64,000 nucleotides of DNA, from the NCBI GenBank assembly GCA_965205865.1, contig CBDBHR010000030.1, positions 1,216,001 to 1,280,000 of the forward strand. The letters run 5' to 3'. The notes beneath the pieces are model-generated. The model worked only from the letters and a program-made list of their open reading frames with translations. It had not been told where the DNA came from and ran no database searches. Position 1 is the first letter of the stretch; every line of letters starts with the position of its first letter. The stretch is from a bacterium. Its GTDB lineage: Bacteria > SAR324 > NAC60-12. The position numbers and the translations under genes are program-made. Below, piece after piece: positions 12,617 to 35,423 of the stretch.

Positions 12617-12848
12617 ACCTGAGTTCGACATAAATCTTCAATAATATGAGTATCCTAGCGTATATGTCATCCTCGCGAAACTTGTCCCCGCGAAAGCGGG
12701 GAGCGGGGATCCGGATTTCAGTCTGGCTGCATACCTCCGGATTCCTTCCCTGCGTACGCAGGGATCTCGCAGGAATGACAAGGTTTCTCTAAGATATGAA
12801 GATTCCATAACATATTGAATTTATTAAATTCTTATCTCGAACTCAGGT
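12617..12848 (-). mobile_element. MITE copy 1 (232 bp), IS982-like ends, internal TGTCAT palindromic doublet
   Basis: TIR ACCTGAGTTCGA(C/G)ATAA; flanked by the direct repeat TAAAATA; near-identical to 13601-13847 and 24249-24458, in the opposite orientation. Confidence 0.9.
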
Positions 12849-33400: not shown

Positions 33401-33537
33401 TTGGGTGGTATTCAGGATACAGATCTTATGGAGGATGGGAGAACAGATGCTCTTTCTGTTTGACCTAGTCCAGTTGTTTCTCCAGGTAGTAACTGATGTT
33501 ACGTGCACGATTTTTGCAGTTATGCGTCTCATCGAGT

Positions 33538-33914
33538 TGTCATTCCTGGCGAAGACCAGGAATCCACTTTGCTAGCGATCCAGGGTGACTAAAACGTTTC
33601 ATATAAATCTATCCATTGAGGATTATTTTTCTCAATGAGTTCGATTTTCCAAGCTCGTTTCCATTTCTTACGTTGTTTTTCTCTCCGGAGAGCAGCTGTT
33701 ACCTCTGAAGTGGTCTCATGGTATATCAATTGATGTACTTGGTATTTACTGGTAAATCCTTCTATGAGATTGTTTTTATGTTCATAAACTCTTCTAAGAA
33801 GATCATTGGTCACTCCAATATATAAAGTGCCAATTCTTTTACTTGCTAAGATATAAACGTAGTAGGTTTTCATGATGGCGACTCCTGGATTCCTGGTCTT
33901 CGCCAGGAATGACA
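33538..33914 (-). mobile_element. 377-bp cassette: GIY-YIG gene between perfect 29-bp inverted hairpin repeats
   Basis: TGTCATTCCTGGCGAAGACCAGGAATCCA (33538-33566) and its exact reverse complement (33886-33914); AT-rich interior. Confidence 0.85.
33589..33873 (-). CDS. Stand-alone GIY-YIG nuclease family protein (94 aa)
   Basis: YYVYILAS...TLYIGVTNDLLRRVYEHK...FTSKY...ALRREKQRKKWKR.WK..LIE..NP.W.DL; conserved Y, R, H and E residues present; AGGAG RBS. Confidence 0.93.
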   Translation of the reverse strand: MKTYYVYILASKRIGTLYIGVTNDLLRRVYEHKNNLIEGFTSKYQVHQLIYHETTSEVTAALRREKQRKKWKRAWKIELIEKNNPQWIDLYETF

Positions 33915-33978
33915 CACTTGTGGGGAAGCGTATTCATGGAAACCGCTGAATGCAAAAAATATTCATGTAACATGACGT

Positions 33979-34442
33979 CTCGACTTTGAACATTTTATCC
34001 AACTTTTGGGTTTAATAAAATCAATGTCTTACGAATCTGTATTGGAATTAATACAGGTCGTATCATCAAAAATGGAAAACAGTAACCTGTATTAATTTTT
34101 TACAGAATTTCAACCAATTGATATTATTGAATAATGAAAATTAAAAGAATAAAGAATCCACCTTCTTAGAAGGTGGTTTTGATGGGCCCCTGGAAGGGGC
34201 GGCTCGTGATCGTACTCGTGAGCCGTGCTCGTGAACGAAACGGCATCCCAGAGAATCCAGGATTCCCTGCCGTCTCTTCTATTCGTAATCCCCATCTCAA
34301 GGGAATCGGGAACGTTTCTATCGAGCACGTGCACGAGCACGATTACGAACACGAGCACGTTTCTGGCAGAGCCGATTATCTCTGACCACGCCCAAAGGAC
34401 GTGGTTTCATCAGATAAAATAAATCGAATGTCCAAAGTCCAG
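33979..34442. mobile_element. Possible MITE enclosing inverted hexamer-repeat tracts
   Basis: Left end CTCGACTTTGAACATT versus right-end reverse complement CTGGACTTTGGACATT (14/16). Inside, (CTCGTG)n at 34203-34236 faces (CACGAG)n at 34321-34359. Confidence 0.45.
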
Positions 34443-34803
34443 GAGGGGGAATAAAGTTGTTGTTTTTTTCTGAGGGTTAAAGAATTTCTGCTGGTCTTTT
34501 GCTTTCTCTTGTGATAGTTCTCGAGAAATCGTCTTTGGCTGAAGGTTTTATTTCAATTTCGCTCATATTTATTTAGCCGAAAGTCATGTAAAACATCATA
34601 TCCTCACCAGAGGATTTTTAGAAACTGTCAACGGGGAATTGAAAAGTGCCAAAAATGTTGACTTCCGTATTTCTATATGAAAAAGTATTTTCGTTGATCA
34701 TAAGAATACACTCATGAATGAATGAGTCGCCATATTTAAAAAAATCTTGATACGTTTGCAGAGCGATTATAATATTTTATTCCAGGGACGGAAAAGCAAT
34801 AAT

Positions 34804-34844
34804 GAGATCCTTCGCTTTGCCGCTCGGCGTACCGTCAGGATGAC
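34804..34844. repeat. TGTCAT-type hairpin variant (GAGATCCTTCGCT...CAGGATGACA)
   Basis: Ends in GGATGACA like the other copies; loop expanded. Confidence 0.55.
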
Positions 34845-34920
34845 ATGAAAGTCTGAAATTAACCCGTTTCAAGTATAAAAAATCTTGATAATGAGGTGGA
34901 TATGAGAGTAAACTCAAAAA

Positions 34921-34988
34921 CCAGTTCCCAGTTCCCAGTTCCCAGTTCCCAGTTCCCAGTTCCCAGTTCCCAGTTCCCAGTTCCCAGT
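34921..34988. repeat. Perfect heptamer tandem repeat (CCAGTTC) x 9.7
   Basis: Read directly; followed by degenerate units to about 35025. Confidence 0.97.
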
Positions 34989-35227
34989 AATAAGTTCCGA
35001 GCACCAAGCTCCCAATCACAAGTTCTACCTCCTTATATTATCTCGACTTCAGGGAGAGATCCCTAAGATTCCTCGTTCCCAATTCCCCGTTCCGGGAACG
35101 GAACGGCAATGGGGAATTTGGAAAATCATCGACGCCTGAGTGCGTCGGTTTATGGTTCATTGCCCAATCCTGGAGCCAATGAATCGGTTTTTTGATCACT
35201 TGAAAATGAAGGAGACCCAATGTGTAG

Positions 35228-35392
35228 AGCAATCGTCGAGAACATGCTTTCTGGAACGAAAGCAGGTTTTAAAGCAACCCGCAATCTTGTTTTTAATCAA
35301 AAAGCAAAAAGGAGCACCATGAACCGTCAAAAAAGTAGAGAAATCGTCGAGAACGTGCTTTCGGGAATCAAAGCAGGTTTTAAATCAATCCT
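35228..35392 (+). repeat. Direct repeat of about 54 bp with a period of about 110 bp, in the SBP2 leader
   Basis: GAG(C/A)AATCGTCGAGAAC(A/G)TGCTTTC.GGAA..AAAGCAGGTTTTAAA.CAA.CC occurs twice. Confidence 0.85.
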
Positions 35393-35423
35393 TAATTATG
35401 AACATCCATTCGAAAGGAAAAAG

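Follow-up and report, generated by a model that had tools for sequence, protein, structure and literature searches.

A probable passenger: an ssn-like nuclease gene and its hairpins inside a 484-bp inverted-repeat element of a SAR324 bacterium

The stretch of a SAR324 bacterium analysed here (64,000 nucleotides of contig CBDBHR010000030.1, positions 1,216,001 to 1,280,000; hereafter the window) contains a 484-bp unit with a small GIY-YIG nuclease gene at its centre. This locus is probably one copy of a non-autonomous cassette in which an Ssn-family gene lies between its cognate hairpins, the SRMs, and is carried as a passenger in an element bounded by terminal inverted repeats (TIRs) and resembling a miniature inverted-repeat transposable element (MITE). 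An earlier note on this DNA had described a shorter, 377-bp unit delimited by the hairpins and mobilized by the nuclease. That observation is real but mis-delimited, and the nuclease–hairpin system that it proposed is right and already published. The new detail is that the ssn-SRM cassette rides an element with TIRs and target-site duplications, and that this element has recently multiplied. Such an association is mentioned neither in the main text of the paper describing the Ssn system (PMC11893778) nor in the literature searched; the terms "paralog", "multiple copies" and "pseudogene" are absent from that main text, and no later paper on Ssn mobility was found in the literature searched.

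Borders, copies and target sites of the repeated unit

The assembly to which the window belongs (G000; 4.74 Mb in 30 contigs, 92% complete) has 22 protein-level ssn matches, among them ten gene-bearing units with both ends. When these ten copies were aligned with 300 bp of flank, conservation ran 45–62 bp past the hairpins on each side, to a pair of imperfect TIRs (33496–33518 pairs with 33951–33973; 23 nt, 78% complementary). The termini read [G/C]T[C/G]ATGTTAC...GTAACATCA[G] over a span of 484 bp, a terminus taking the form [G/C]T[C/G]ATGTTACGTG...TTTTGCA. Other copies align over window positions 33490–33971 at 97%, and in public contigs the sequences of other copies part from the window exactly at 33490 and 33976; the window's own junction at 33490 is spanned, with 0–6 differences, by contigs from three public runs belonging to three studies. 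The arms and the gene of the 377-bp unit therefore stand, but the unit that is repeated is the longer one (Table 1).

The copies are 93–97% identical, and the flanks differ in each of those aligned. Six of the ten two-ended units have an open 94-codon frame (C30:1249k, which is the window copy, C27:136k, C23:188k, C23:86k, C28:277k and C30:468k), and four contain stops (C3:28k, C24:117k, C24:21k and C30:970k). There are also two gene-less derivatives (C28:49279–49459 and C30:37548–37738) and at least nine truncated copies, seven of which retain the 3' end. Pairwise dN/dS among seven copies ranges from 0.55 to 3.4, averaging 1.27 for the 18 pairs in which dS exceeds 0, and three further pairs of copies differ by 8–9 non-synonymous and 0 synonymous changes. 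Private changes have occurred at residues invariant in the family (K69E and K76T in the C27 copy, A10S in C28, L25P in C30:468k); the window copy keeps all invariant residues and departs from the consensus of the copies at N14I, V50I, Y52H and L68R. The copies show the pattern of a burst and subsequent neutral decay, not that of a maintained master gene. The "autonomous master copy" that the locus had been taken for is one of at least ten copies evolving with a dN/dS of about 1.

Target duplications were scored in the seven bases outside both ends of 13 two-ended family members. Perfect cognate duplications of 7–8 bp flank eight of the 13, and two more match at six of seven positions. The duplicated sequences are TGAATAA (twice), TTAAATAA (8 bp), ATAATAA, TTATTTA, TTATTCA, TTATGAA and TTTCTAA. 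Perfect matches among non-cognate pairs numbered two in 156, both from the two insertions that have TGAATAA in common. Insertion of this family thus appears to take place at AT-rich sites and to duplicate 7 bp of target.

The same ends are found on elements that carry no nuclease gene. Across 45 genomes of the taxonomic family, the terminal motif ATGTTACG[T/C]G-N4-7-TTTTGCA occurs at seven sites in G016, three in G008 and two in G001, with 0 in the backwards control. At four of seven loci examined (L132, L133, L136 and L138), inverted ends bound elements of 169–480 bp that have neither ssn nor SRM, and one gene-less TIR element is flanked by TTATTTA on both sides. No ssn was found with this query in G016 or G008, both of which are draft genomes. 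Since the same TIRs bound gene-less, SRM-less elements elsewhere, the outer TIR element is a MITE family in its own right, one lineage of which carries the ssn-SRM cassette in G000. With the hairpins internal to an element that ends in TIRs and 7-bp duplications, and with those TIRs bounding MITEs where no ssn was found, the hairpin-bounded, nuclease-driven mobility proposed earlier is not supported.

Mobile insertion cassettes and cargo-carrying MITEs combine TIRs with a passenger gene and have no transposase of their own. The present family resembles them in its TIRs, target duplications, lack of a transposase gene, gene-less relatives and several copies, but differs in that its passenger is a nuclease with its own target hairpins.

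G001, which belongs to the same genus, was searched for sites without the unit. No empty site for the window copy was found there, synteny stopping at the upstream gene, and for the C27 and C28 copies only one flank could be matched. At C23:86k both flanking genes are syntenic in G001 with about 416 bp less between them, the intergenic DNA being too diverged to align; this shows that the unit is absent from the G001 counterpart, without giving a clean empty site. No public contig joins across 33490–33976 and hence no empty allele was seen, although this comparison covers contigs only and such absence proves nothing.

Table 1. Positions of features in the window and, for the last row, in the assembly G000
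Feature	Position	Strand	Description and evidence
Whole repeated unit, 484 bp	33493..33976	-	TIR-spacer-SRM-ssn-SRM-spacer-TIR; copy alignment, termini analysis, public contigs
Outer TIR, gene-distal (3') end	33493..33518	+	CTGATGTTACGTGCACGATTTTTGCA; conserved in all copies; motif shared with the ends of gene-less MITEs in G016, G008 and G001
Downstream SRM hairpin	33538..33567	+	TGTC-ATTCCTGG-CGAAGA-CCAGGAAT-CCAC; matches published degenerate pattern; arm of perfect 29-bp inverted repeat
ssn-like gene, 94-aa single-domain GIY-YIG nuclease	33589..33873 (stop codon included)	-	ATG start at 33873; Pfam, 13-sequence alignment, AlphaFold2 model
Ribosome-binding site AGGAG	33882..33886	-	8 nt before ATG, abuts upstream arm; read from sequence
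Upstream SRM hairpin	33885..33914	- (coding strand)	CCAG tail overlaps ribosome-binding site; matches published pattern; inverted-repeat arm
Outer TIR, gene-proximal (5') end	33951..33976	-	Pairing, copy alignment, termini analysis
Neighbouring unrelated repeat	33978..34442	.	Its end abuts the 484-bp unit
1,735-bp insertion sequence in SRM loops	C23:32440-34174, C23:10998-12733, C28:594300-596034, C29:670019-671753, C30:96559-98293 (G000)		

The nuclease and its hairpins

The two arms (33538–33566 and 33886–33914) are inverted, 29 nt each and 100% complementary, and each consists of a TGTC tag and a hairpin with a DNA folding energy of −6.6 kcal/mol. Inside the arms GC content is 0.36, compared with about 0.5 in the flanking genes, and the ribosome-binding site abuts the upstream arm. 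Between the arms the only open reading frame (ORF) encodes the GIY-YIG protein, and there is no transposase in the unit. The frame comprises 94 codons and its product matches Pfam GIY-YIG over residues 4–77 (E 1.1e-13); a longer GTG-start frame returned by the ORF finder is a mere translation of the hairpin, and homologues begin at the ATG. In these respects (perfect tagged repeats, contiguous AGGAG, AT-richness and an intact 94-aa gene) the earlier description was accurate.

Residues Y7, Y18, R28, H32, E65 and N84 are invariant in 13 aligned sequences (the window protein and 12 homologues). The spacing of Y7, Y18 and E65 (11 and 47 residues) equals that of Y6, Y17 and E64 of Neisseria meningitidis SsnA, the catalytic residues that were mutated according to the main text of PMC11893778, and the three are presumably their counterparts. 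The AlphaFold2 model (pLDDT 78) has a compact GIY-YIG fold: the nearest folds are UPF0213 BH0048 (1zg2), Slx1 and UvrC-N, all of them GIY-YIG, with Foldseek E-values that are weak (best 2.9e-3). The protein is 62% identical to a homologue from a Rickettsia endosymbiont (L099). A PDB sequence search with it gave no match at E ≤ 0.01, and among NCBIfam models none exceeded its cut-off, the group I intron endonuclease model TIGR01453 scoring 18.3 bits against a required 56.05. GIY-YIG homing endonucleases such as I-TevI and Seg are similar in their catalytic domain and selfish-looking context; however, the window protein measures 94 aa in all with no DNA-binding domain, has no intron or phage context, and stays below the TIGR01453 cut-off. 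Contigs of the RNA library X16 cover the arms and not 33656–33817, which says nothing on transcription either way.

G000 also encodes a divergent, intact paralogue at C30:870856–871131 (57% identity; Pfam GIY-YIG E 6.7e-17). It is syntenically conserved in the genus, with an orthologue at G001:C1:3293836–3294111, and G001 has only this paralogue and one decayed ssn copy. Downstream of the paralogue lies a hairpin of another subtype, GTCATTGCGG...CCGCAATCCA, whose loop is long and nested.

According to the main text of Chenal et al. (Nat Commun 2025; PMC11893778), Ssn proteins are single-domain GIY-YIG nucleases of 94 aa, which recognize a hairpin with a (C/T)GTC tag, bind it only as single-stranded DNA (ssDNA) and cut a few nucleotides 5' of it, binding and cleavage having been shown for four homologues. 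Critical here are the three bases preceding the stem and the C that follows it, and SsnA also acts on split or extended stems. The Neisseria hairpin, NTS, is CGTCATTCCCGCGMAVGCGGGAATCYRG, an oriented extension of the dRS3 palindrome. According to the same text, no gene is flanked by such repeats more often across bacteria than ssnA (CDD cd10448), with at least one SRM near 71% of its homologues and SRMs on both sides of 42%. In N. meningitidis the system is described as ssDNA restriction, which modulates how incoming or exposed ssDNA recombines at loci marked by hairpins. The authors' Discussion likens NTS-ssnA-NTS to an insertion sequence (IS) and to the pairing of repetitive extragenic palindromes (REPs) with RAYTs; within the main text, spread of ssn genes and hairpins is a hypothesis only. 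Enzyme activity, the gene–hairpin link and both analogies were thus in print in 2025, where the earlier note had known of no demonstrated mechanism, while allowing for an earlier bioinformatic mention.

The hairpins themselves have a longer history. Di Nocera et al. (BMC Genomics 2013; PMC3733652) classed dRS3 and Rickettsia RPE-4/-6 as "CGTC-tagged REPs", a TGTC variant included; these have an 8–9-bp stem starting AT, a CCA tail and loops of 4–5 nt, form head-to-head dimers and clusters, and had no dedicated enzyme or transposase found for them. The hairpins described here have the TGTC tag, a ATTCCTGG stem beginning AT and the CCA tail, but the loop of the window subtype is 6 nt (CGAAGA), other subtypes in the same genome having loops of 4–5 nt. 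Among 455 GTC-tagged perfect hairpins in the genome, 164 end in CCA.

In sequence, the window locus matches the Ssn/SRM system: it has a 94-aa single-domain GIY-YIG protein, the (C/T)GTC tag 5' of an AT-initial stem, the C after the stem, inverted hairpins on both sides as in NTS-ssnA-NTS, and hairpins dispersed in more than 100 copies. It differs in that the cassette is multicopy (ten two-ended units) and nested in outer TIRs with 7-bp target duplications, and in its stem and 6-nt loop, where Neisseria has ATTCCCGCG. By analogy with the published enzymes, the window protein would bind and cut its hairpins, with predicted cuts at about 33530–33537 on the + strand and 33915–33922 on the − strand. 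The REP/REPIN-RAYT systems are similar in having one small gene between inverted copies of a genome-wide hairpin and in recognizing hairpins in ssDNA. Compared with REP-RAYT and IS200/IS605, however, the enzyme is a GIY-YIG and not an HUH Y1 protein, and the tag is GTC and not GTAG; moreover, RAYTs are single-copy and vertically kept, whereas the ssn-like gene is multicopy and decaying.

Hairpins of this type are over-represented in the window and beyond. TGTCATTCC occurs eight times within the 64 kb against 0.92 expected. The degenerate SRM pattern HGTCWYN(0-2)YYVSBRHN(0-5)WNVSBRGN(0-2)RNCYNB, taken from PMC11893778, has six matches in the window, including 33538–33567(+) and 33885–33914(−), and 140 in the genome against 21 in a reversed-sequence control. 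Two of the TGTCATTCC sites, at 12772(−) and 24317(+), share at least 100 bp of near-identical flank on both sides, and some of the "solo" hairpins are therefore parts of larger repeats.

The association of gene and hairpin extends well beyond this genome. Relatives of the window protein, of 51–165 aa, account for 7,984 of 8,000 scored candidates at E ≤ 1e-5. Eighty homologue loci were gathered with the 13-sequence alignment; their identities are 56–73% and they come from many phyla and groups, including Patescibacteria, Omnitrophota, Ignavibacteria, Dehalococcoidia, Proteobacteria, a Rickettsia endosymbiont and a Legionella. At 65 of the 80, the gene has a GTC-tagged perfect hairpin no more than 150 bp away (upstream at 53, downstream at 59, on both sides at 47), as compared with 3/75 and 1/71 in control windows 550–700 bp away. 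The layout is mostly that of the window, with the upstream copy on the coding strand and the downstream copy inverted. This check, which the earlier note had suggested, and the ssDNA binding and cutting shown for homologues (PMC11893778) bear out its pairing of nuclease and hairpin. In 69 loci of other phyla with 400-bp flanks on both sides, such flanking inverted repeats as were found are mostly a single pair of 26–36 bp at SRM distances, pairs further out being occasional (for example, at L041); thus, the outer TIR seems to be specific to the lineage.

How the unit may have spread

We propose that Ssn would bind the SRM hairpin in single-stranded form and cleave the DNA a few nucleotides to its 5' side, as its published homologues do. 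The ssn-SRM cassette sits in a TIR-bounded, MITE-like element with ends [G/C]T[C/G]ATGTTAC, which has multiplied to at least ten gene-bearing copies, plus gene-less and truncated derivatives, apparently by insertion into AT-rich sites with 7-bp target duplications. This spread was most likely catalysed in trans by a transposase that recognizes the outer TIRs, and not by Ssn at the hairpins. Because TIRs and target duplications mark the ends of the amplified unit, a trans-acting transposase is the best-supported route, and it is the one to which we incline, if only by a modest degree; in addition, cuts of the Ssn type cannot free a single strand of the unit, given that its two hairpins are on opposite strands. 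Once inserted, the gene copies would drift neutrally, and the paralogue at C30:870856–871131 may supply any host-level Ssn function. The data favour regarding the TIRs, the 7-bp duplications and the burst of copies as the first direct evidence that a cassette of the NTS-ssnA-NTS type transposes.

A number of observations speak against this account. The window copy has no target duplication (three of seven bases match at its true borders), and neither do copies 7 and 10. The earlier note was right about the window copy in this regard, but had used the wrong borders, and eight of 13 members do carry the duplication; in the window copy, the unrelated repeat adjoining the unit at 33978–34442 may be the reason for its absence. 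No autonomous element with this TIR was found in 24 of 404 repeat intervals, which partly repeat the same families and were chosen by eye to include the most abundant ones, nor did exact 9-mers of the terminus return an autonomous candidate in the genome. A sigma-70 promoter scan gave no site upstream of the ssn gene. Under the published membership criteria (PMC11893778, main text), a tblastn match to N. meningitidis SsnA (CAX49033.1) must reach E<1e-10 and cover >75% of that protein, or the rpsblast score to cd10448 must be >100; our putative assignment to Ssn draws on Pfam GIY-YIG, length, residue spacing, fold, hairpin pattern and homologue loci. Finally, SRM tandem arrays at C30:58–65 kb have units of 16, 51, 66, 74 and 98 bp whose start or finish coincides with the TGTCATT tag, and the truncated copies are biased towards keeping the 3' end. 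Array breakpoints at the tag and 3'-anchored truncations together hint that hairpin-linked processes also reshape these elements, and Ssn may contribute to that reshaping.

Two 49-bp look-alikes of the terminus, considered as a possible autonomous partner, proved to be ordinary genes.

That the nuclease is instead a transposase-like driver, which cuts at the hairpins and spreads itself along with solo hairpins as a RAYT does for REPs and REPINs, strikes us as quite unlikely. The arrangement of a gene between inverted hairpins is kept across phyla (the analogy is also drawn in the Discussion of PMC11893778), about 168 tagged hairpins with compensatory stem changes are present in the genome, the tandem arrays have unit borders at the tag, and 34 hairpins of the exact window subtype lie at or beside ssn units and fragments; all of this such a driver would explain. 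It would not explain why the amplified unit ends 45–62 bp outside the hairpins, in TIRs with 7-bp duplications, how cuts at hairpins on opposite strands could free a single strand, or why some TIR elements lack ssn. Hydrolysis of DNA by GIY-YIG enzymes involves no covalent intermediate, and strand rejoining would need other factors. Hairpin numbers in 31 relatives, counted in draft genomes with the narrow motif GTCATTCC-N8-16-GGAATC, track the nuclease only loosely: there are 163 matches in G000 with its many ssn copies and 294 in G001 with its decayed copy and paralogue, but also 234 in G006 and 84 in G018, where this query gave no ssn match, and 0 in G025 and G029, which each have an intact homologue. 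The covariation of repeat count with nuclease that the earlier note had proposed to look for is therefore loose, and a strict dependence of the hairpins on the nuclease is weakened but not refuted.

Homing is another route by which the nuclease could act. Ssn would cut near the SRMs of gene-less MITE copies and repair would copy the gene in, an empty MITE being the equivalent of an "intron-less allele". Two gene-less members exist, and in one of them (C28:49279–49459) the missing DNA runs precisely from behind GGAGTC up to the stop codon, between short AGTC repeats; moreover, SsnA is active on split or extended stems (PMC11893778, main text). The same junction fits a deletion between 4-nt repeats equally well, though, gene-less members are two against ten gene-bearing ones, a dN/dS of about 1 speaks against ongoing selection for an active homing enzyme, and the gene-less MITEs of other genera have no SRM; we regard such spread as very improbable. 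Unlikely, too, is that the cassette is a homing-type drive riding the MITE, with Ssn cuts either triggering repair-copying into gene-less copies or producing the truncations and arrays. Most improbable is that the copies serve the host only, as paralogues of an ssDNA restriction enzyme with the repeats as regulatory or target sites. Such a function has been demonstrated in Neisseria (PMC11893778, main text) and both genomes of the genus have kept the intact divergent paralogue, but ten near-identical copies that differ in their flanks, together with target duplications, stops and a dN/dS of about 1, are the hallmarks of a selfish burst, of which there is no sign in five other genomes with 1, 3, 8, 3 and 3 ssn matches, mostly divergent paralogues.

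Other repeats around the units, and significance

G000 is unusually repeat-rich, with 404 merged intervals of at least 700 bp recurring at 90% identity or more, and families of about 37, 31, 20 and 15 copies of 1.2–1.9 kb. The intergenic DNA beside the window unit is itself a pile-up of other repeats. The adjoining 465-bp repeat has a 96% copy at C29:793732–794202 and relatives of about 170 bp in G008, and its first 23–24 nt recur at three further sites. Next to it, 34477–35400 belongs to a family of about 920 bp with several copies in G000 and G001, and continues into the start annotated for the ABC substrate-binding gene that lies downstream.

The tandem arrays on C30 (58200–65000; L121) amount to several kb built from pieces of the ssn-unit arms, with an additional period of 125 bp. 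Their units meet at the TGTCATT tag or within the hairpin, beside ssn gene fragments, and similar clusters are present in G001 at 2.50–2.61 Mb and 4.22 Mb.

Several elements have landed in the units. A 94-bp repeat with 15 blast hits (C3:28217–28310 and 14 others) sits in 13 of the 15 cases at GTTAC inside an ssn-unit terminus, with GTTAC on both sides. Two IS110-family elements of about 1.65 kb (Pfam PF01548 and PF02371; C28:49439–51090 and C23:185635–187289) occupy the same position and have both ends in common with the 94-bp repeat, which therefore looks like a miniature IS110 derivative aimed at the ssn-unit TIR.

The hairpins are hit as well. A 915-bp insertion (C23:187328–188242; L119:2829–3743) splits an ssn unit between TG and TCATTCC of the upstream hairpin. 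Its end matches the Rfam group II intron domain V/VI model RF00029 (54.3 bits) and it has no intact reverse-transcriptase ORF. The insertion is apparently a group II intron without an ORF, placed directly behind the hairpin. Targeting of hairpins is a habit of some bacterial group II introns. A 1,735-bp IS with a 525-aa transposase-like ORF lies in the loop of an SRM hairpin in five of its seven full copies (Table 1; for example, TGTCATTCCCGCGAAGC[IS]GGAAGGCGAGAATCC), which is reminiscent of the IS elements that target REP loops. SRM hairpins act as landing pads for other elements, with an IS in their loops and an apparent group II intron adjoining.

Whether small GIY-YIG nucleases and (C/T)GTC hairpins are linked was still open in 2013, and the answer came in 2025. 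The family described here adds a probable passenger of a TIR-bounded element with target duplications, a case that argues against the simple picture in which the hairpins are the transposon ends. Its copies, at 93–97% identity, are young enough for ends, targets and decay to be read. With closely related enzyme variants and one cognate hairpin, the genome is a natural test bed for the Ssn field. If the homing-type drive, unlikely as we consider it, were true, it would be the first mechanism for the multiplication of Ssn genes and CGTC-type hairpins.

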